From: Mizuhopecten yessoensis
Lineage: Eukaryota
Length of the DNA: 64,000 bases
Assembly (NCBI RefSeq): GCF_002113885.1
Contig: NW_018408761.1
Location: 997,580 to 1,061,579, forward strand
Direction of reading: 5' to 3'
The notes under the pieces are model-generated. The model saw nothing but the letters and a program-made list of their open reading frames with translations, did no database searches and had not been told where the DNA came from. The first letter of the stretch is position 1, and each line of letters begins with the position of its first letter. The position numbers were made by a program, and so were the translations under genes. Positions 13,846 through 54,337 of this stretch are shown here, in pieces.

Positions 13846-14029
13846 CACTTGTTTAAAGTACTCCGTTCCGAGTCCCATCTATGGGTGTCGCCTTCTCCTG
13901 GTATGTGAGGTGGCACTGGGCCGACAGTGTCCTTACACAAGTACTGACTACTCCCTCACAGCATCTCCCACTGGTTACCATAGCACCCATGGGGTCAAAA
14001 GGTCATCTGATGTCAACAGTCACTTTGAG
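13846..14029 (+). CDS. PARP4: PARP4 exon 11, catalytic domain (STCLKYSVPSPIYGCRLLLVCEVALGRQC...GYHSTHGVKRSSDVNSHFE).
   Basis: Aligns to human SIKYSHPGETDGTRLLLICDVALGKC...PPGYDSVHGVSQTASVTTDFE. Confidence 0.85.
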
Positions 14030-14403
14030 GTCAGTATGATATTTGATGTTAGTATGATATTTTATCTCAATCAGATGAGGTACAATTTACCTCTAACCTG
14101 TAAGCAAAATAATGATTATGTTTTTTTTCTATCATTCTGCTCAATTATGTTTTTTGGAGTCCCCTACTAGTACTAAGTGAAGGACTAAGATAGGTTTGCA
14201 ATTCATCTGTCCATCTGTCTGTCCTTTATGGGACCCTTTGCTTTTACTTCAAACCTTTAACTACAAATGTAGGACTAAATTTGTTCTTTGACCATGGAAA
14301 TGATAGTTCAAGTTATTCTTATATATTTAACTTTTTGCCTTTTATCTGGAAAATATCGGTTAAGATATTATCCTTGAATGTCTGTCCTTTAATTGTTGAC
14401 CAG

Positions 14404-19410: not shown

Positions 19411-19600
19411 AATTATCAACTCAGATACATACAAACACTGTTAATGTTTTATCACAGATTCATACAAACACTGTTAATGTTTTATCACAGATACATACAA
19501 ACACTGTTAATGTTTTATTACAGTTACATACAAACACTGTTAATGTTTTATCACAGATACATACAAACACTGTTAATGTTTTATCACAAGAACTACTCTT
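19411..19600. repeat. 31-bp minisatellite (agatacatacaaacactgttaatgttttatcac) x6, ending 8 bp before the acceptor of PARP4 exon 14.
   Basis: Direct reading. ORFs 19363-19752, 19398-19637 and 19460-19711 are artifacts within it. Confidence 0.85.
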
Positions 19601-19608
19601 TGTTCCAG

Positions 19609-19735
19609 GTTGTGGTTCTCCAGAAATACAGAAATGACAACGACTCGGCGATCGAGGCCAAGTACATCTTCCCACTGGATGACACAGCAGCTGTTTGTGG
19701 GTTTGAAGCATTCATTAATGGAAAACACATTGTTG
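19609..19735 (+). CDS. PARP4: PARP4 exon 14, VIT domain (VVVLQKYRNDNDSAIEAKYIFPLDDTAAVCGFEAFINGKHIVG).
   Basis: EAKYIFPLDD.AAVCGFEAFINGKHIVGE is essentially identical to human PARP4. Confidence 0.95.
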
Positions 19736-20030
19736 GTGAGTCATACATTTGATTATTAAAAACATTTTAAGATAAACATGGTCTGCTTATTAACAGTGTC
19801 CAGAGATTTTAATAATGTTTTGAATCAGGACTGTAGGATTGTACATTTTAATTAGTTGTATTAAACTCTATACCATATCAATGTGAAGCTAGTGAGACAT
19901 GTTTGCCAGCACTTTGTGGGCAAGATTTTGAGTGTCTTAAATATCATACTGAATTCTACACAAATGGTAAATAACTAATTATTGTATGAAAAAGAAAATT
20001 ACCAAATTTTGTGGACTGATTCGTTTTCAG

Positions 20031-20573: not shown

Positions 20574-21493
20574 AACTCACCTGCCCGAAGGGCAAGTGAG
20601 CTTATGCCATGGTGCGGCGTCCGTCGTCTGTCGTCCGTCTGTCCGGCGTCAACTTTTTACTTTAAACAACTTCTTTTCAGTAACCAAAAGGCCTAGGATG
20701 ATGATATTTGGCCAGTAGCATGCTGGGATGAAGGGCTACCAATTTTGTTCAAATGAATGACCTTGACCAATGTTCAAGGTCACAGGGGTCAAATGTCTTT
20801 AAATATTCAAACAACTTCTGCTCAATAACCAAAAGGCCCAGTGTACTGATATTGGGCCTGTAGCATGCTGGGATGAAGGACTGCCAAGTTTGTTCAAATG
20901 AATGACCTTGACCAACTTTCAAGGTCAAAGGGGTCAAATGTCTTAAAATCTTCAAACAACCTCTTCTCAATAACCAAAAGGCCAATGGAACTGATATTAG
21001 GCCTGTATCATGCTGGGATGAAGGGCTACCAAGTTTGTTCAAATAAATGACCTTGACCAACTTTGAAGGTCACTGGGGTCAGATGTCTTAAAATCTTCAA
21101 ACAACTTCTTCTCAATAACCAAAAGGCCCACGGTACTGATATTGAACCTGTAGCATGCTGGGATGAAGGACTACCAAGTTTGTTAAAATGAATGACCTTG
21201 ACCAATTTTCAGGGTCACAGGGGTCAAATGTCTTTAAATCTTCAAACGACTTCTTCTCAATAACCAAAAGGCCCAGGGTACTGAAATTGGACCTGTAGCA
21301 TGCTGGGATGAAGGACTACCAAGTTTGTTCAAATGAATGACCTTGACCAACTTTCAACCTAATGTCCTTGTTTGACAATCAAGGTCACAGGCATCATATG
21401 TTTAAATCTTTTAATAGGTTCTTATGAAATCTTATGATTACAAGTGTGAGATTAATACCAGGTGAGCGATGCAGGCCCATTGGGCCTCTTGTT
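20574..21493 (+). mobile_element. HINE-like element, type A. Head is AACTCACCTGCCCGAAGGGCAAGTGAGCTTATGCCATGG, a hairpin palindrome, with five ~160-bp monomers and tail CCAGGTGAGCGATGCAGGCCCATTGGGCCTCTTGTTT.
   Basis: A 10-bp inverted repeat, GCTCACCTGG / CCAGGTGAGC, lies at the two ends. Confidence 0.7.
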
Positions 21494-25379: not shown

Positions 25380-26700
25380 ATGCATCCTACCAGGATTGGC
25401 CCTAAGCTACTTCAAGGTCATAGGAGTCAACTATGTCAAAAACTTCTAACGACTTTTTCTAAAAAAACGAGGCCAAAAATTGTACTATTTGGCAAGCAGC
25501 TTCTTGGGAAAGAGCCCAATAAAGTTTGCAAACAAATATTACTTTGATCCACTTTCAAGGTTGCAGGGATCAGACATGCCAAATATTCAAACAACTTCTT
25601 TTGAAAAACAAAAATAACCAAGAGTCATGATATTTGGGTATAGGCTTTCTGGGGTACATTCAGCCAAAGTTTGCTAAATAAAATTACTTTGACTTACTTT
25701 CAAGTTGAAAGGGTTCAAAAGAAGGCATAGAATCATGATATTTGGCCAGTAGCTTTCTGGGACAGAGCCATACAATGTGTGTGGGGGGAAAAAGTGGGCT
25801 TGACCTACTTTGAAGGTCCCCAGAGTCAGATATAAAATAACTAGAGTCATGGTATCTTGCTGGTTGCTTTCTAGGATGGAGCCCATCATCATTTCCATGT
25901 CAAGAGTTGACCTTGACATACTTTCAAGGTCACAGACGTCAAATATGTCAAGAAATTCAAATGACTTCTTTCAAAAGGCCTGGAATCATGACAATTTGAA
26001 TGATCCCAAGAATGTATAGGTTGAAAAAAGAAATGACTGACCTTTGACTATCCAGGTCACAAACATAAAATTGTGCTGAGTCATTTAGGGCAAATAAGGT
26101 GTAGATTAAGTACATTCACAATTTCATATTACTGGTATTGTTGAAATAAACCAATTAAATATTACAGACGTCCACTAATATCTTGCACACCAAATCACTT
26201 TACACATTGGACAAGTGAGGAATACAGGCACTTTTTACCACCTGTTAGATTTAGGTCAATTATTACATCACCTTCATTATTTTCATTCTTGACTACCAAA
26301 AGGCCTAGGGTGATGATATTTGGCCAGTAGCATGCTGGAATAAAGGACTGGCAAGTTGTTCAAATGAATGACCCTGACCAATAGTCAAGGTCACAGGAGT
26401 CAAATTTATTGAAAAAATTCAAACAACTTCTTCTGAATAACCAAGAAGCATAGGGAGGTTATATTTGGCCAATAACATGCTGAGATGAAAGGTTATCAAG
26501 TTGAAGAGAATGAACTTCAACCGTATTCAAGGTCACAGGGTTCAAATTTGTTAAAAACTTCAAACAACTTCTTCTGAATAACCAAATGACATAGGGTAAT
26601 GTTATTTAGCCAGTAATATACTGCAATGCATGGTTATCAAATTTGTTCGAATGAATGACTTTGACCTATTTTCAAGGACACAGGGGTCAAATTTGTTTAT
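25380..26700 (+). repeat. Degenerate arrays of type-A ~160-bp monomers (caaacaacttcttttgaaaaac...tttcaaggt.acagg) without recognizable termini.
   Basis: Divergent copies of the monomer seen at 20574-21493 and 55738-56230. Confidence 0.5.
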
Positions 26701-32488: not shown

Positions 32489-33506
32489 GTGAGTGATCCA
32501 GTCTCATCACCTTGTTGTATGAGGCTTTGTTATTGTTGGTTGTAAGCAAGGGAGAAACTCTCAGCATCATCCTGAGAAAATAATCTGACCCAAGCATCTG
32601 CACTAACAAATCTCATATGAAGGATTGTAATTTTAACACAGTACTGGGTCTCTTCTAAAGTGGTGGACGTTTTTTTGTTTCAAACATTACTATACTGTAG
32701 ACCTTGGTTTGAACTCTCATACTAGTAGAATGACTCAGGCATTTATATTCACAAAGTTCACTACAAAGCAAACAGTCATTTAAGTCAGAATGAACAAAAA
32801 ATATAACACTGAGTTCCTTGTTAAATTTCTTTTTGCAAATAATGTTAACGAGCTTTCCTTTAGCATAGGAAAGGGGGTGAGTCTAAATTACAGGTAACAA
32901 ACTTAGTGGTTAAACTATATCATAGTGATCTCAATGTCTTTACTCTAATATACAATTTCGCAACTTTCGTGTTGAGCGATAAACTTCATGTTTTTCCTGC
33001 CATATAATTTCACTGAACCTATTGGAACAGAAGATAATGCCCAAATTCTTCAAGAATTTCTTGAAGTCTCTCAAAAAACAGGGACATAATTCAAATCAGA
33101 GCTTAGTCAATGATTAAAGCTTAATAGGGTAGAAACATGCAGACTAGATCACAAATTAAAAACAAATTTTGCTACTGAAATCATCACATTACATATTGGA
33201 ATACTGGTAGAAGTGGTTCAGTATGATTTACAGAAACAATTATACATATAGATTTGAAATATAGCATTACAAAGAGACAATCTACAGGAAATACGTGTTT
33301 AAAGCTGTCAATCAATATCCATTCCCTTAGTTAACTCATTCACCCCTGATTTCATAATGAATTATTCCAAACTTTGAATTGGAAGAGTTCAAATGTGTCT
33401 TCAGGGGTAATTGAGTTAAATATGATCTCTGAAAATTTCATCTTTAAGAGATATTTAAGAGGTAGTCTTGTACTTCTATGTCACTTTTATGTTTTAATAC
33501 TCTCCA

Positions 33507-33677
33507 GATGAACACTCAAGTTCAGAAGGCATGCCGTCCAGGTATTTCTGGTGTTAAAGTGGAGTGGCAGCAAAACATGGACACGACCAACAGACCTCTT
33601 CAGGCCCCTAATCACATCCCAAGTTTGTTTTCTGGGTCACGACAGGTCGTGTATGGCTTTGTACCTAACTGTACACA
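33507..33677 (+). CDS. PARP4: PARP4 exon 23 (MNTQVQKACRPGISGVKVEWQQNMDTTNRPLQAPNHIPSLFSGSRQVVYGFVPNCTQ).
   Basis: Aligns to human MTRLCSPSCHSVSVKWQQLNPDVPEALQAPAQVPSLFLNDRLLVYGFIPHCTQ. Donor CAG|GTGAGA. Confidence 0.9.
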
Positions 33678-35840
33678 GGTGAGAATTTTTATTACACTGA
33701 TGTGCTGGTAAGCAGGGGTTCAACTAGTTATATCTTTGTATGGCTTTGTACCTAACTGCACACAGGTGAGAATTTTTATTACACTGATGTGCTGGTAAGC
33801 AGGGGTTCAACTACTCCCCTCGGTAGGGACAAGTTATATCTTTGTATGGCTTTGTACCTAGCTGTACACAGGTGAGACTTTGTATTACACTGATGTACTG
33901 GTAAGCAGGGGTTCAACTACTCACCTCGTTAGGGACAAGTTATATCTTATCTTTGTATGGCTTTGTACCTAACTGTACACAGGCGAGAATTTTTATTACG
34001 AGGATGTGCTGGTAAGCAGGGGTTCAACTACTCGCCTCGTTAGGGACAAGTTATATCTTTGTATGGCTTTGTACCTGAATTTAGGCAGGGGAGGCTTTGT
34101 ATTACACTGATGTGCTGGTAAGCAGGGGCTCAACTACTCACCTCGGTAGGGACAAGTTATATCTTCATATGGCTTTGTACCTAACTGTACACAGGTGAGA
34201 ATTTTTATTACGAGGATGTGCTGGTAAGCAGGGTTTCAACTACTCACCTCGGTAGGGACAAGTTATATCTATGTATGGCTTTGTACCTAACTGTACACAG
34301 GTGAGACTTTTTATTACGAGGATGTGCTGGTAAGCAGGGGTTCAACTACTCCCCTCGGTAGGGACAAGTTATATCTTTGTATGGCTTTGTACCTGAATTT
34401 AGGCAGGGGAGGCTTTGTATTACACTGATGTGCTGGTAAGCAGGGGTTCAACTACTTATTTCTGGTGTTAAAGTGGAGTGGCAGCAAAACATGGACACGA
34501 CCAACAGACCTCTTCAGGCCCCAAATCACATCCCAAGTTTGTTTTCTGGGTCACGACAGGTCGTGTATGGCTTTGTACCTAACTGTACACAAGTGAGAAT
34601 TTTTATTACGAGGATGTGCTGGTAAGCAGGGTTTCAACTACTCACCTCGGTAGGGACAAGTTATATCTTCATATGGCTTTGTACCTAACTGTACACAGGT
34701 GAGAATTTTTATTACACTGATGTGCTGGTAAGCAGGGGTTCAACTACTCCCCTCGGTAGGGACAAGTTATATCTTTGTATGGCTTTGTGCCTAACTGTAC
34801 ACAGGTGAGACTTTGTATTACACTAATGTGCTGGTAAGCAGGGGTTCAACTACTCACATCGGTAGGGACAAGTTATATCACGCTTTATATCTAGATAAAA
34901 TAAAACGAGTTCATTACAAAGATGACCGGACAAAAAATGATGTATTCAATATCAATATCAATATTGATATATCTTTGTATGGCTTTGTACCTAACTGTAC
35001 ACAGGTAAGACTTTGTATTACACTGATGTACTGGTAAGCAGGGGTTCAACTACTTACCTCGTTAGGGACAAGTTATATCTTTGTATGGCTTTGTACCTAA
35101 CTGTGCACAGGTGAGACTTTGTATTACACTGATGTGCTGGTAAGCAGGGATTCAACTAGTTATATCTTTGTATGGCTTTGTACCTAACTGTACACTGGTG
35201 AGACTTTGTATTACGAGGATGTGCTGGTAAGCCGGGGTTCAACTACTCACCTCGGTAGGGACAAGTTATATCTATGTATGGCTTTGTACCTAACTGTACA
35301 CAGGTGACACTTTGTATTACGAGGATGTGCTGGTAAGCAGGGGTTCAACTACTCCCCTCGGTAGGGACAAGTTATATCTTTGTATGGCTTTGTACCTAAC
35401 TGCACACAGGTGAGAATTTTTATTACACTGATGTGCTGGTAAGCAGGGGTTCAACTAGTTATATCTTTGTATGGCTTTGTACCTAACTGCACACAGGTGA
35501 GAATTTTTATTACACTGATGTGCTGGTAAGCAGGGGTTCAACTAGTTATATCTTTGTATGGCTTTGTACCTAACTGCACACAGGTGAGAATTTTTATTAC
35601 ACTGATGTGCTGGTAAGCAGGGGTTCAACTAGTTATATCTTTGTATGGCTTTGTACCTAACTGTGCACAGGTGAGACTTTGTATTACACTGATGTGCTGG
35701 TAAGCAGGGGTTCAACTACTCACATCGGTAGGGACAAGTTATATCACGCTTTATATCTAGATAAAATAAAACGAGTTCATTACAAAGCTGACAGGACCAA
35801 AAATGATGTATTCAATATCAATATCAATATTGATTATATT
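33651..35840 (+). repeat. Tandem satellite (~108-bp unit, ~20 copies) derived from the 3' end of PARP4 exon 23 plus its GT donor and the start of the intron. It includes a 180-bp partial re-duplication of the exon at 34440-34620 and an 880-bp higher-order period.
   Basis: The unit ctttgtatggctttgtacctaactgtacacagGTGAGAatttttattacactgatgtgctggtaagcaggggttcaactactc.cctcggtagggacaagttatat repeats head-to-tail. Its first copy is the authentic exon end. Confidence 0.85.
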
Positions 35841-35924
35841 AGGAGACTGTAAGTGCAGAATTAAGTTCTTTGCAAAGGGGTTTTTAATGTGTGGTGGAAC
35901 TGGAATGGGTTGATTGTCGGTGGC

Positions 35925-36010
35925 CAGGTAGCTCAAATAGTAGTGTCTGTCTAGTGTTGTGAGGGTTCCAGGTTTGAACCCCAGTCTGGCCATTGCATTT
36001 CTGTTTTGCA
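35925..36010 (+). mobile_element. tRNA-derived SINE head fragment (ggccaggtagctcaaatagtagtg...ggttccaggtttgaaccccagtctggccattgcatttc).
   Basis: A-box/B-box-like GTAGCTCA and GGTTTGAACCCC. A homologous copy lies at 62706-62800. Confidence 0.45.
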
Positions 36011-36070
36011 ACAAATGTATTGTTGTGTCTGGTTGTAATTTGGTTAGTCTGTTTAATGAAGAAGGTAAAA

Positions 36071-37117
36071 AGGTTATATTAGCTCACCTATGAGCTTATG
36101 GTATGGCGTGTTGTCACTCGTCTGTCATCCGCCCGTCATTGAGTCTGTCGTTCATCGTCCCATCAACGTTTTCTTTGAATGGCTTGTTCTCAAGAACTGG
36201 AGGACCTAGGGCCATGATATTTGTTCAGTAGGTACCTGGGACAGAGTGCTGTAATATTTTCTCAAATAAATGACCTTAACTTACTTTCTATGTCACAGGG
36301 GTTAAATATATAAAAAAACCTTTAAACAACTTCTTCTGAATAACCAGGAGGCCCAGAGTAATAATACTAGGTCAGTATGTACCTGGCATGAAGTGCTATA
36401 AAGTGTCCTCAAACAAATGACCTTGACTTACTTTCAAGGTCACAGGGGTCAAATGTGTTTAAAAACCTTTAAAACATCTTCTTCTGAATTTCTGAATAAC
36501 CAGTAGGCTAAGAGTCATGATATTTGGTTTGGCCAGTAGGTTCATGGGACAGAGTGCTATAAGTTTTCCTCCAATAAATAACCTTGACCTACTTTCAAGG
36601 TCATGGGTTAAATATGTAAAAAATAAATTAAACATCTTCTTCTAAATAACCAGGAAGCCCAAAGTAATAATACTTGGCCAGTAGGTACCTGGCATGAAGT
36701 GCTATAAAGTTTCCTCAAATAAATGATCTTGACATACTTTCAATGTCACAGGGTTCAAAATTGTAAAAATCTTTAAACAACTTCTTCTGAATAGCTAAGA
36801 GGCTTAGAGCAATGATATTTGGCTAGTAGGTACCTGGGACAGAATGCTATCACGTTTCCTCATATAAATTACCTAGACCTCCTTTACAGTCACAGGGTTC
36901 AAATATGTGAATACTTCTTCTGCAATACCAGGATGCCCTCATTGATGATGTTTGACAAGTAGCATGCTGGGATAGAGTAGTATAAAGCTTCATTTAGTCT
37001 GGAGCATTCTTAAGCCAAGGAAACTCAATATATTAAAATATTTACAAAAGTACTTTTATTGAGAATATTTTCCCATGATTGCTCAAATAACCAGGTGAGT
37101 GATAAGAGGGCCTCTTG
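36071..37117 (+). mobile_element. HINE-like element, type A variant.
   Basis: Head AGCTCACCTATGAGCTTATGG, ~160-bp monomers and tail CCAGGTGAGTGATAAGAGGGCCTCTTG. Confidence 0.6.
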
Positions 37118-37340
37118 TAAAATGATTAAAGAGTTTCTCCATTTCAGAATGTTGTCAGTCTGTTAGAGATATATATAGATGGTAATATTTGCCTCGGACA
37201 AATAACAAACTTACAATGTCGGATCATACCAAGGTAAATATCTCTTTGTAACAATAACAAACTTACAATGTCGGATCATAACAAGGTAAATATCTCTTTG
37301 TAACAATAACAAATTACAGCAACCATCATTTATTTTACAG

Positions 37341-37421
37341 GCCTATTTGAAGGCAACTGTGGACAACATGGAGGTTTCTACGATGGTAGCAACAACAGAA
37401 CTCAACATTACACAAGGAGAG
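37341..37421 (+). CDS. PARP4: PARP4 exon 24 (AYLKATVDNMEVSTMVATTELNITQGE).
   Basis: Aligns to human ATLCALIQEKEFRTMVSTTELQKTTGT. Confidence 0.85.
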
Positions 37422-51497: not shown

Positions 51498-54337
51498 TTG
51501 AAAAGATGGGCAACTTTAGCTGCATGGCACTTCCAGATGACAACGTGGTTGATGATGCTACGAACAAGAAACAGGAAGTGTCAGATGTAGGAAGAATACC
51601 AGACTCTCCACTCTCAGCAACACAGTTTGGCCCCTTGTCTCCAAAATGTTCAGATTCATTTGGTACAAACTTTGAAAAATTTGAAATCTCTCAGTATTTA
51701 GATGAAGACATGGAGATTGATTTAGATACTGAAGACCCGGCATTCCTCATTCTCACTTCTGAAATATCTGACATATTTTCACCTTCAATGGCAGGCCATT
51801 CTCAGGACACTCCAGCCTATATATCAACCTCCCCATCTTACAAACCAACTTCCCCATCCTATTCGCCCACTTCCCCATCTTACAAACCAACTTCCCCATC
51901 CTATTCGCCCACCTCCCCATCTTACAAACCAACTTCCCCATCCTATTCGCCCACCTCCCCATCTTACAAACCAACTTCTCTATCCTATTCGCCCACTTCC
52001 CCATCTTACAAACCAACTTCTCCATCCTATTCACCAAATAGAAGAGCACGAAGAGCCAAATCAACATTTGAGGATTTCCAACATGAATCAACATCAAACA
52101 ATAAAGATTTTGTGGTTTCAGGTTCAAGACAAGCAAAGTCAAGCAGCACATCTAGTGAACATGGTTTGTGTGGAGCTCCAGTGCAAGCAGAACCAGGCAG
52201 TAAACCAAGTCAGAGCTTCAATTTTAATGCTTCGCTACAAACAGCATCAAGCAATGAACCAACACAAAGTTTGGGATTGGGGGCTCCAAACCTAGCAGAA
52301 CTAGGCGGTAAACCAAGTCAGGGGTTCAATTTTAGTGCTCCTCTAGTAACAGCATCAAGAAATATATCAACACAAAGTTTGGGATTGGGGGCTCCAAACC
52401 TAGCAGAACCAAACACAATGCCAAGTCAAGGGTTTTCCTTTGGAGCTCGAATGCAAACAACTCAAAGCGCTTCACCAGCCGAAGGTTTCAGTTTTTCTCA
52501 GAATCAAACATTGCAGAGCATTACCAGTAAAGGAAGCCATTGTTTTGGATTTGGGACTTCAAAACCAGCCGGAGCAAGCAGAACGACAAGTCAAGGGTTT
52601 TCCTTTGGCGCTCAAATGCAGTCCCAACGATGCAATATACCAACCCAAGATTTCTATTTTGGAGCTTCAAATTCAGCAGGTTTTGGAGATGACGGTGACA
52701 GACGTGGTGGTTATGGAGGTGTCAGTGTTAGACCTGGTGGTTATGGAGATGACAGTGACAGACGTGGTGGTTATGGAGGTGTCAGTGTTAGACGTGGTGG
52801 TTATGGAGGTGTCAGTGAGGGACTTGGTGGTTATGGAGGTGTCAGTGTTAGACGTGGTAGTTATGGAGGTGACAGTGTTAGATGTGGTGGTTATGGAGGT
52901 GTCAGTGAGGAATGTGGTGGTTATGGAGGTGTCAGTGAGGGACTTGGTAGTTATGGAGGTGTCAGTGAGGGACTTGGTAGTTATGGAGATGACGGTGTCG
53001 GACGTGGTGGTTATGGAGATGACAGTGTCGGACGTGGTGGTTATGGAGGTGACAGTGTCGGAGGTGATGGTTATGGAGGTGTCAGTGAGGGATTTGGTGG
53101 TTATGGAGGTGACAGTGAGGGATGTGGTGGTTATGGAGGTGTCAGTGTTAGATGTGGTGGTTATGGAGGTGTCAGTGAGGGACGTGGTGGTTATGGAGGT
53201 GACAGTGAGGGACGTGGTGGTCCTAGACTTGCTGGTTCTAAAGATGGACATGTTTCTTACATAGAAACAGCACCAACATTTACATATTTGAAGGATCTTG
53301 ACTTGAATTTAGCAAAACATGATCCAAAAACTAGGATATTGAAGGAAAATGACAGAAGACCTTCCAGTGTAACAGAGAAGGATCTGCCTTCACAGCCTTT
53401 CAGACATGTACAGGATAAAATGTTCCCACCAGACTTTGATGAATCCTTATTACCTAAACAAAAGAGAAAAATTCCTCCTGTTGGAAGAGGAGGTTCTGGA
53501 TTCACTGCAAGGAATGACCAGGGTCCTGCTGAAACAACCAAAGAACAAGGTCGAAGGTCATTAAAGTCAGTCAGAGGCGCAATGCATGGTGCAAGATCAA
53601 GAGACAGAAATAGGGAACAATCTCGTGAGCTTATTGTGCTGGATAAGAGTAAAAAACTAAGTTTGAGTCATGACAGAAGGCGGAGGAGTTTGAGTAGAAG
53701 TTTGAGTCGAGACAGAAGACAGAGGAGTTTGAGTAGAAGTTTGAGTCGAGACAGAAGGCGGAGGAGTTTGAGTAGAAGTTTGAGTCGAGACAGAAGGCGG
53801 AGGAGTTTGAGTAGAAGTTTGAGTCGAGGAAGGGGGAGAAGAGACTTGGAAAGATGTTACAGTAGAGATAGAGCAAGAAAGGAAAATAAAAAAATGCACA
53901 GATCAAGTGGAAATAATGATACAAACAGTAGGAATAAAAATAGGGACAAAGCAGGAAGCAAAATAGACAGAGATCCTGCAAGAGAAAGTAAGAAACAGAT
54001 AAAGCATAAAAATGAAAAGAAGGAGCAAACAAAGGCTGATGAACAGGTTGTCAAAACATTTGGGAAAAAAGGGAAGAAAAGGGAACAGACAAGGGATGAT
54101 GAAGAGATTGTCAAAACTGGAGGGAAGAACCTGTCAGGAAAGTTGGAATATGATGATCATGAGAAAATGGACTTTACAGTGGACATGGCACCAACTTTGA
54201 AAGTCTGGGATGTAACATCAGAGACAGGCAAGGACATTGTGAAATTCATAAAGTATATTTCTGATTCAATCTTCTTTTATATACAAAAGATCTGTAATTT
54301 TCTACAAATTCAAGTGAGCTTAAGTGAACTTTCTTGA
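51233..54337 (+). CDS. 3.1-kb open reading frame (giant exon or intronless gene) encoding a modular low-complexity protein. Its modules are a histone H3(15-31) mimic, a poly-Asp tract, RNAPII-CTD-like heptads, FG repeats, GGYGG repeats, an RS domain and a K/E tail. It is probably the large low-complexity exon of the PARP4 ortholog.
   Basis: Uninterrupted 1033-codon ORF. The acceptor tttcag at 51227-51232 lies immediately after an in-frame TGA at 51206. Phase 0 is compatible with PARP4 exons 27 or 28. Human PARP4 also has a large S/P-rich low-complexity region at this position. Confidence 0.7.

Follow-up and report, generated by a model that had tools for sequence, protein, structure and literature searches.

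Why should an intron open with a long series of copies of the exon-intron junction from which it starts? This question is raised by a 64,000-nucleotide stretch of Mizuhopecten yessoensis DNA (contig NW_018408761.1 of assembly GCF_002113885.1, positions 997,580 to 1,061,579 of the forward strand; hereafter the window, to which all coordinates refer), in which an exon of a gene identified by homology as an orthologue of PARP4, the vault PARP, is followed by a tandem array that repeats the exon end together with its 5' splice site, or donor. Arrays of this kind have been known since the 1990s and were named "mirages" in amphioxus (PMC3087553, PMC3902484), and the array described here is probably a junction-spanning intronic minisatellite of the mirage type that has no dedicated function. 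Its units are arranged head to tail and are of minisatellite size (the class ranges from ~10 to 160 bp), the first unit holds the authentic exon-intron boundary, and the splice signal is reiterated within the intron.

Host gene and architecture of the array

The junction exon was delimited from its translation and by tblastn with three PARP4-like proteins (P0009, P0011 and P0015) and with orthologous fragments, and the exon that follows it by tblastn combined with reading of the sequence (Table 1). The two exons join in phase to give the ...CTQ|A(Y/T)LKA... of homologues (P0009 reads ...CTQ|ATLKAVINNREISTMVSTSELSITSGK), and the 27 codons of the second are also present in the orthologous locus L003, while the open reading frames that read through the junction in the orthologues all diverge directly past ...CTQ|V; the host frame is intact and the copies are wholly intronic. 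With regard to the identity of the gene, a library-wide HMMER search with P0005 retrieved proteins of 1,100-2,500 residues that match at ~920-1125, P0009 matches human PARP4 with E=3.6e-285, and the concatenated exons hold BRCT, PARP catalytic, VIT and VWA_3 domains. Searches (tblastn) with the three proteins place the N-terminus at ~4790 and at least 26 coding segments in the window, the junction exon being the 22nd that is detectable by homology; at least one upstream coding segment probably escapes detection, and the number 23, which a first-pass annotation of this DNA had given to the junction exon, is plausible on these grounds. The homologue P0009, which comes from outside the window, also carries at residues 1238-1347 a C-terminal 14-3-3-like segment (PDB matches with E of ~1e-30 to 1e-34) that probably reflects a fused gene model in its source assembly.

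The same annotation had reported about 20 head-to-tail copies of the exon end and its donor directly downstream of the real donor. Such an array is confirmed, with 19 in-register junction copies if the authentic one is included, and thus 18 extra, intronic ones. Its units measure 106 or 87 nt rather than ~108 bp, the exon-derived part is 29 nt (33650-33678) rather than 30 nt, and the peptide LYGFVPNCTQ that had been given for the exon end is a conceptual reading of the intronic copies, the real exon encoding VYGFVPNCTQ: the authentic end reads ...GTCGTGTATGGCTTTGTACCTAACTGTACACAG|GTGAGA, and the copies read TGTATGGCTTTGTACCTAACTGTACACAG|GTGAGA followed by intron sequence. Between 33650 and 35718, Tandem Repeats Finder detects arrays that overlap one another and have periods of 87 and 106 nt (scores 301-1116), a repeat-family search returns a single 19-copy family without inverted repeats, and a search anchored on the exon-end motif finds it 19 times, both of the latter with spacings of 87, 106, 111, 186 or 200 nt. 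The most conserved intronic 28-mer, GATGTGCTGGTAAGCAGGGGTTCAACTA, occurs 19 times with at most one mismatch, always on the + strand and within 33699-35718, and not once in shuffled sequence. No array unit was found elsewhere in the 64-kb window and, as far as the window shows, what had been called a satellite is a single-locus minisatellite of 2.2 kb in total, with its unit confined to 33650-35745.

The boundary unit u0 (33650-33736) holds the exon end and the CAG|GT at 33678/33679. Twelve units are 106 nt long and five are 87 nt, one (u2) is 111 nt, being the 106-nt form with a 5-nt duplication, and one (u7) is truncated; the 87-nt length of u0, u12 and u15-u17 is due to a common 19-nt deletion (CTCACCTCGGTAGGGACAA). 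Mean pairwise unit identity is 92.5% (range 81-100%), and the variants are distributed as mosaics. Units u4-u6 resemble u7-u9, forming a three-unit higher-order repeat, and u4 and u7 have in common an 8-substitution patch that destroys the donor. This patch (34076-34096 and 34394-34414; ~8 substitutions, CCTGAATTTAGGCAGGGGAGG versus CCTAACTGTACACAGGTGAGA) lies exactly over the decoy exon end and donor. Between u7 and u8, diagonal comparison and second tblastn matches reveal a longer re-copy of exon sequence, which had been described as a 130-nt pseudo-exon with a GT donor at 34440-34620; the re-copying and the GT hold, while the fragment measures 136 nt at 34457-34592 and its donor is CAA|GTGAGA, a product of one of its two mismatches. 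Its use as an alternative exon was considered and rejected, since neither the native acceptor nor the initial 35 nt of the exon is present in it and its donor is this CAA|GT. An internal copy of the array 3' flank divides the whole into sub-array A (33650-34972) and sub-array B (34973-35839).

Assemblies are prone to error at tandem repeats, and one alternative to a real array, though a highly unlikely one, is an expanded or chimeric repeat with no counterpart of the same form in the genome. Units u15-u17 are identical and keep a perfect 87-nt period over 294 nt, the only stretch where short reads could misjudge copy number, and no independent contig with a unit-unit junction was found: in metagenome contigs the unit-unit junction and the conserved 28-mer gave 0 matches each and the exon search reached at most 69% identity, a null result that is uninformative because the organism is not represented there (no identical exon occurs either). 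An artefact is contradicted by the differences of 0-19% between units in mosaic patterns, by the two length classes, by the embedded exon copy and duplicated flank, by a longest exact repeat of only ~207 nt, and by a window sequence without any Ns (ambiguous bases). Only the copy number of the 87-nt run is doubtful in this assembly.

Table 1. Positions of the array, its parts and the flanking exons in the window.
Feature	Position	Strand	Details
Authentic PARP4-orthologue exon	33508..33678	+	171 nt, phase 0-0; encodes MNTQVQKACRPGISGVKVEWQQNMDTTNRPLQAPNHIPSLFSGSRQVVYGFVPNCTQ; acceptor AG 33506-33507
Authentic 5' splice site CAG|GTGAGA	33676..33684	+	intron starts at 33679; approximate position weight matrix score 11.8
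Host intron	33679..37340	+	3,662 nt; the array is its first 2,162 nt (59%)
Next exon	37341..37421	+	81 nt, AYLKATVDNMEVSTMVATTELNITQGE; acceptor AG 37339-37340; donor GAG|GTAATC
Tandem array, 19 units	33650..35745	+	each unit 29 nt exon end, donor and 58-77 nt intron
Unit starts u0-u9	33650, 33737, 33843, 33954, 34060, 34166, 34272, 34378, 34564, 34670	+	
Unit starts u10-u18	34776, 34976, 35082, 35169, 35275, 35381, 35468, 35555, 35642	+	
Re-copied exon fragment	34457..34592	+	matches 33543-33678; 136 nt, 2 mismatches (98.5%)
Internal copy of array 3' flank (ACGCTTTATATCTAGATAAAATAAAACGAG...)	34880..34972	+	AATAAA at 34899
Genuine array 3' flank	35746..35839	+	continues into unique intron; 3 mismatches and 1 indel versus the internal copy
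Perfect 87-nt periodicity	35370..35663	+	u15-u17 identical; 294 nt
Paired substitutions in u3	33981..34037	+	AGGCGAG 33981-33987 with CTCGCCT 34031-34037; complementary, private
Paired substitutions in u11	35003..35059	+	AGGTAAG 35003-35009 with CTTACCT 35053-35059; complementary, private

Origin and growth of the array

The direction in which the repeat arose is indicated by the orthologous loci. Homologous fragments from other organisms share the reading ...R Q (V/I) V Y G F V (P/E) (N/Y/S) C T Q, past which all of them diverge at once. At the nucleotide level, six other taxa (L001, L002, L003-L008, L009, L010 and L011) have kept the exon end GGxTTyGTxCCxAAyTGyACxCAG|GT, and each of their loci has a single junction with an unrelated intron free of repeats behind it; in L003 this intron measures only ~580 nt. 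An exon end that is ancestral and conserved implies that the array was derived from the junction rather than the junction from the array, which bears out the birth from an exon-intron junction proposed in the first-pass annotation. The opposite direction, in which a pre-existing satellite or transposable element supplied the exon 3' end and its donor by exonisation, has next to no probability: although dispersed elements that contain tandem repeats abound in the window, the array unit itself is absent from the remainder of the window, and the peptide VYGFVPNCTQ and the junction position are conserved in the six other taxa as well as in full-length PARP4 homologues, a conservation by which capture of the exon end from a satellite is effectively refuted. 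Homology with the orthologous introns was not detected, local alignments scoring z<0 against shuffles for all six orthologues; a by-eye likeness in L001 (GGTAAAG and CTTAC at similar offsets) was rejected as chance by the same measure (z<0).

The sequence preserves the steps by which the array formed and grew. In the founding tandem duplication, the left breakpoint fell 29 nt inside the exon and the right one ~77 nt into the intron, so that the junction was copied; the full exon and the first donor stayed intact, and therefore all later copies are intronic. Expansion and reshuffling to 19 units proceeded via unequal exchange, replication slippage and gene conversion, and among the later events were the spread of the 19-nt deletion variant to five units, a higher-order duplication of three units, another duplication that extends 136 nt into the exon, and a duplication that took in the array 3' flank. 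Slippage or unequal exchange seeded on an exon boundary, as had been suggested, fits the mosaic unit variants, the three-unit higher-order repeat, the exon re-copy and the duplicated 3' flank. Moreover, u0 shares 99% identity with u15-u17 over a distance of 1.7 kb (u0 and u1 against u15-u17 give 99-100%), and therefore the real junction region recently exchanged sequence with the array interior. The same mutational event, an internal tandem duplication that copies a splice signal, is at the basis of the Rogers model of intron gain via tandem duplication across AG|GT proto-splice sites (PMC4974935, PMC2891723), with the difference that a new intron is created inside an exon in that model, whereas here an existing, conserved intron was merely lengthened.

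Splice signals, precedents and paired donor changes

It had been claimed that the intron carries about 20 consensus 5' splice sites and about 20 further CTG|GTAAGC sites, and the latter were indeed found in 19 of 19 units. The junction donor is reiterated 18 times, but only 12 of these 18 copies are perfect CAG|GTGAGA; one reads CAG|GTAAGA, three are weakened (CAA|GT, CTG|GT, GTGACA), one is a GC donor and two are destroyed (GGGAGG), the mutated extra donors amounting to 6 of 18, with 5 of them weakening. Donor-like sites scoring at least 9 occur at 15 per kb in the array and at 0.74 per kb elsewhere on the + strand (~20-fold), as judged by an approximate donor weight matrix that is based on the frequencies in published compilations and is only indicative. 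Translation continued past the authentic donor is halted by an in-frame TAA after 10 codons, and an exon extended by 29 nt, to 33708, would undergo a frameshift that also ends at a stop; from conceptual translation, every downstream donor would give a premature stop and none would be productive. No known RNA family or tRNA was found by Rfam (E<=1) and ARAGORN in the 33-38 kb and 30-40 kb regions.

How an intron of this type would be spliced is argued here from precedent. In the variable number of tandem repeats (VNTR) of human F7 intervening sequence 7 (IVS7), which consists of 5-9 copies of 37 bp, the pseudo-donors are functional, yet splicing takes place at the most upstream site only (Borensztajn et al. 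2006, PMC1557585). As in the present array, the first F7 monomer spans the exon-intron boundary, with an authentic donor followed by identical pseudo-donors that in F7 are functional but silent, and the F7 array is polymorphic in length; its unit, on the other hand, is much shorter and includes only 4 nt of exon, and in contrast to its weak donor (UGG|gugggu) the present array has a strong one, accompanied in each unit by a second strong donor-like site. According to the summary in PMC1557585, only the authentic donor is used in the intronic repeat of LMNB2, with 10-15 copies of a ~100-bp unit (de Stanchina et al. 1997, Gene 196:267), and only the most upstream donor in PDGFA intron 4, with 16-18 copies of 81 bp. 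PDGFA matches the present array in unit size and copy number, and the geometry here (~100-bp units, ~19 copies, most of the intron) is nearly that of both LMNB2 and PDGFA; LMNB2 differs in host gene and lineage, and the present array also contains a 136-nt re-copy of its exon and a re-copy of its own 3' flank. As outlined in the same source, junction-spanning minisatellites that reiterate a donor, like that of PDGFA, are also present in CBS IVS13 (15-20 copies of 31 bp) and in intron 2 of IFI6 (also named 6-16), with 25 pseudo-donors; in IFI6 and CBS splicing employs the two nearest pseudo-sites as well, whereas here every alternative donor would lead to a stop codon.

Among invertebrates, the amphioxus mirages (Adh3, the globins BflGb6/9, TnC and PGBD5) are reported to leave splicing undisturbed (PMC3087553, PMC3902484). 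They are likewise tandem duplications of exon-intron boundaries, with units of up to ~160 bp, 81-100% identity and concerted evolution. Their copy number is usually lower (3-6 in the globins), and their boundary units are excluded from homogenisation, whereas the boundary unit of the present array is nearly identical to distal ones.

By analogy with F7, where the evidence is experimental, and with LMNB2 and PDGFA, where it is reported, the spliceosome would use the most upstream, authentic donor, and the 15 junction copies that retain GT would leave with the intron together with the 19 CTG|GTAAGC sites. Minor leakage to 33708 or 33766 may occur and would result in a premature stop and, presumably, nonsense-mediated decay (NMD). 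The array would thus represent at most a mild cost and a source of length polymorphism, and a neutral or mildly costly intronic minisatellite is its most likely nature.

A dedicated regulatory role, as a U1 decoy, a polyadenylation regulator or a source of recursive splicing, had also been put forward and is unsupported, the extra donors of the experimentally studied precedents with units of similar size (F7, LMNB2 and PDGFA) being functional yet unused (PMC1557585). In its most developed form, this proposal would have ~33 strong 5'-splice-site-like sites recruit the U1 small nuclear ribonucleoprotein (snRNP) and so tune PARP4 output, be it through NMD-targeted unproductive splicing, through slowed intron removal or nuclear retention, or through suppression of intronic polyadenylation (telescripting), which appears unlikely. 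The high density of donor-like sites speaks for such a decoy array, but it is also an automatic by-product of amplifying one junction. The CTG|GTAAGC motif is invariant in 19 of 19 units, although the statistic attached to this invariance (p=0.045) is post hoc and uncorrected, and it is in the two flank copies, within and just past the array, that AATAAA hexamers first appear along the intron. In addition, the 31-bp junction VNTR of CBS has, in the account given by PMC1557585, reportedly been associated with reduced enzyme activity. On the other side, the same source states that in F7 even pseudo-sites of high U1 complementarity offer the first site no competition, decay is seen in 6 of the 18 junction-type donors here, and the array is absent from all six orthologues found. 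When minor-allele events were counted per unit column, 7 of 35 fell in the 9-nt junction-type donor (binomial p=0.026; post hoc, uncorrected).

An extremely unlikely alternative is a recursive-splicing ladder, in which each ...CTAACTGTACACAG|GTGAGA would act as a 3' splice site and then regenerate a 5' splice site, the intron being removed stepwise with no trace in the mRNA. Each copy places a YAG beside a strong donor with a branch-like CTAAC motif upstream, and the pyrimidine fraction of the 20 nt upstream (0.65) equals that of the authentic acceptor at 37340; however, a distance of only ~11 nt separates the branch A of CTAAC from the AG, the pyrimidine tract is not continuous, conservation of the motif does not extend beyond the array, and the precedents suggest no such mechanism. 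Furthermore, known recursive splice sites serve very long introns, and the present one is only 3.7 kb.

The 106-nt units also show an internal complementarity, as their decoy donor core AGGTGAG (columns 28-34) is the exact reverse complement of a heptamer, CTCACCT (columns 78-84), which resembles the 5' end of U1 small nuclear RNA (snRNA) and sits in the 19 nt missing from the 87-nt units, u0 included; the minimum free energy (MFE) fold of the consensus unit pairs the two (helix 28-34/78-84). Units u3 and u11, in which the heptamer lies 43 nt downstream of the donor, have exactly two private substitutions each, and in both these are complementary helix partners (Table 1). If the 13 observed singletons are placed randomly on a fixed MFE structure, two or more compensatory pairs arise with P=5e-5, a post hoc value that rests on two events, and the column-shuffle control is weak (51/500). 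Several units have uncompensated mismatches in the helix, and the unit fold is not significantly stable (z-scores -1.7 and -1.3). An accessibility contrast had been expected since u0 is without the masking heptamer, but local partition-function folding did not make the authentic donor more accessible than the decoys, P(unpaired 9-mer) being at most 0.022 at all 19 donors and 0.005 at the authentic one. As a separate observation, the variant donor AGGGGAG of u4 and u7 is complementary to the heptamer variant CTCCCCT of u1, u6, u9 and u14, and the u6 heptamer is situated 49 nt upstream of the u7 donor.

Sequestration of 5' splice sites in stem-loops is established for MAPT exon 10 and for SMN2 exon 7 (terminal stem-loop 2, TSL2). 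The pairing of a decoy donor core with a U1-like heptamer and its two compensatory changes are reminiscent of these systems, whereas the helix here is predicted only, was passed over by RNAalifold in favour of other helices, and goes along with the same accessibility for authentic donor and decoys. The u3 and u11 pairs could stem either from selection for paired decoy donors or from a DNA-level quasi-palindrome template switch that copies a change between arms. That the array is not inert, with compensatorily kept masking hairpins forming a tunable bank of U1 sites, or else with paired changes produced by quasi-palindrome templated mutagenesis, is quite unlikely; if it were true, each 106-nt unit would mask its decoy 5' splice site by a built-in mimic of the U1 5' end, CTCACCT, and the structured U1-site bank would set productive PARP4 splicing against NMD or retention.

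Some points nevertheless weigh against a mirage-type minisatellite without function. Use of the first donor only in this organism rests on analogy, and the use of the two nearest pseudo-sites in IFI6 and CBS, as presented in PMC1557585, is a precedent of the other kind; the nearest strong competing donors are close by, CTG|GTAAGC 29 nt downstream (33708) and a further one 87 nt downstream (33766). The CTG|GTAAGC motif is without minor-allele events while the junction-type donor accumulates changes (p ~0.03-0.045, post hoc), and the double changes in u3 and u11 hint at constraint or templated mutation, neither of which is predicted by independent neutral point mutation.

Neighbouring repeats and wider meaning

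The PARP4-like gene contains other repeats close to its splice sites. An 18-nt tandem duplication (14024-14062, 2.2 copies; TTTGAG|GTCAGTATGATA and TTTGAT|GTTAGTATGATA) lies across the donor of a PARP-catalytic-domain exon (...NSHFE, ~14031) and represents a second, miniature junction duplication within the gene. A 33-nt array of 5.1 copies (19422-19588) ends 18 nt upstream of the acceptor of a VIT-domain exon (19606-19740), and its copies each end in an acceptor-like TTTTATCACAG, giving five decoy 3'-splice-site-like motifs before the real CCAG|GTTGTGG. In the intron of the junction array itself, a 52-nt repeat (37201-37318, 2.3 copies, AAG|GTAAAT in each) ends 22 nt upstream of the acceptor of the next exon, and an array with a unit of ~145 nt occupies 36214-36908; the family of the latter also occurs at 20660-21357 and 26377-26697, in two other introns, and its presence in three introns therefore identifies it as a dispersed element that is tandemly repeated inside. 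The regions at 43-50 kb and 56-58 kb are filled by related families of 146-156 nt. Just past the junction array, at 35900-35990, GGTGGCCAGGTAGCTCAAATAGTAGTG...GGGTTCCAGGTTTGAACCCCAGTCTGGCC looks by eye like the head of a tRNA-derived short interspersed nuclear element (SINE), with a box-B-like GGTTTGAACCCC, although ARAGORN and Rfam returned nothing there. Further downstream, G-rich, coding-like tandem repeats are located at 51825-53830 (42 nt x 4.9, 108 nt x 2.1, 30 nt x 18 (GGTTATGGAGGTGTCAGTGAGGGACGTGGT) and 39 nt x 4.4; GC skew +0.32), which may correspond to a low-complexity C-terminal tail of the PARP4-like protein or to another gene.

The junction array opens no new category, and its practical weight lies mostly in annotation, as arrays like it can lead gene predictors and spliced aligners to misplace the donor or to call pseudo-exons. 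Possibly new are a PARP4-orthologue host in an apparent non-chordate invertebrate, the re-seeding from the exon, and the covariation of donor and heptamer. The array records the stepwise seeding, and then the repeated re-seeding, of a minisatellite from a coding exon, and it provides a clean natural case, in what is apparently a non-chordate invertebrate, of a series of many identical 5' splice sites headed by the authentic one, an arrangement that has been used in human F7 to model 5'-to-3' donor selection. Its decoys, 12 perfect and 6 mutated in various ways, and the second strong donor-like site in each unit would make this locus well suited to a test of the first-donor rule outside mammals.

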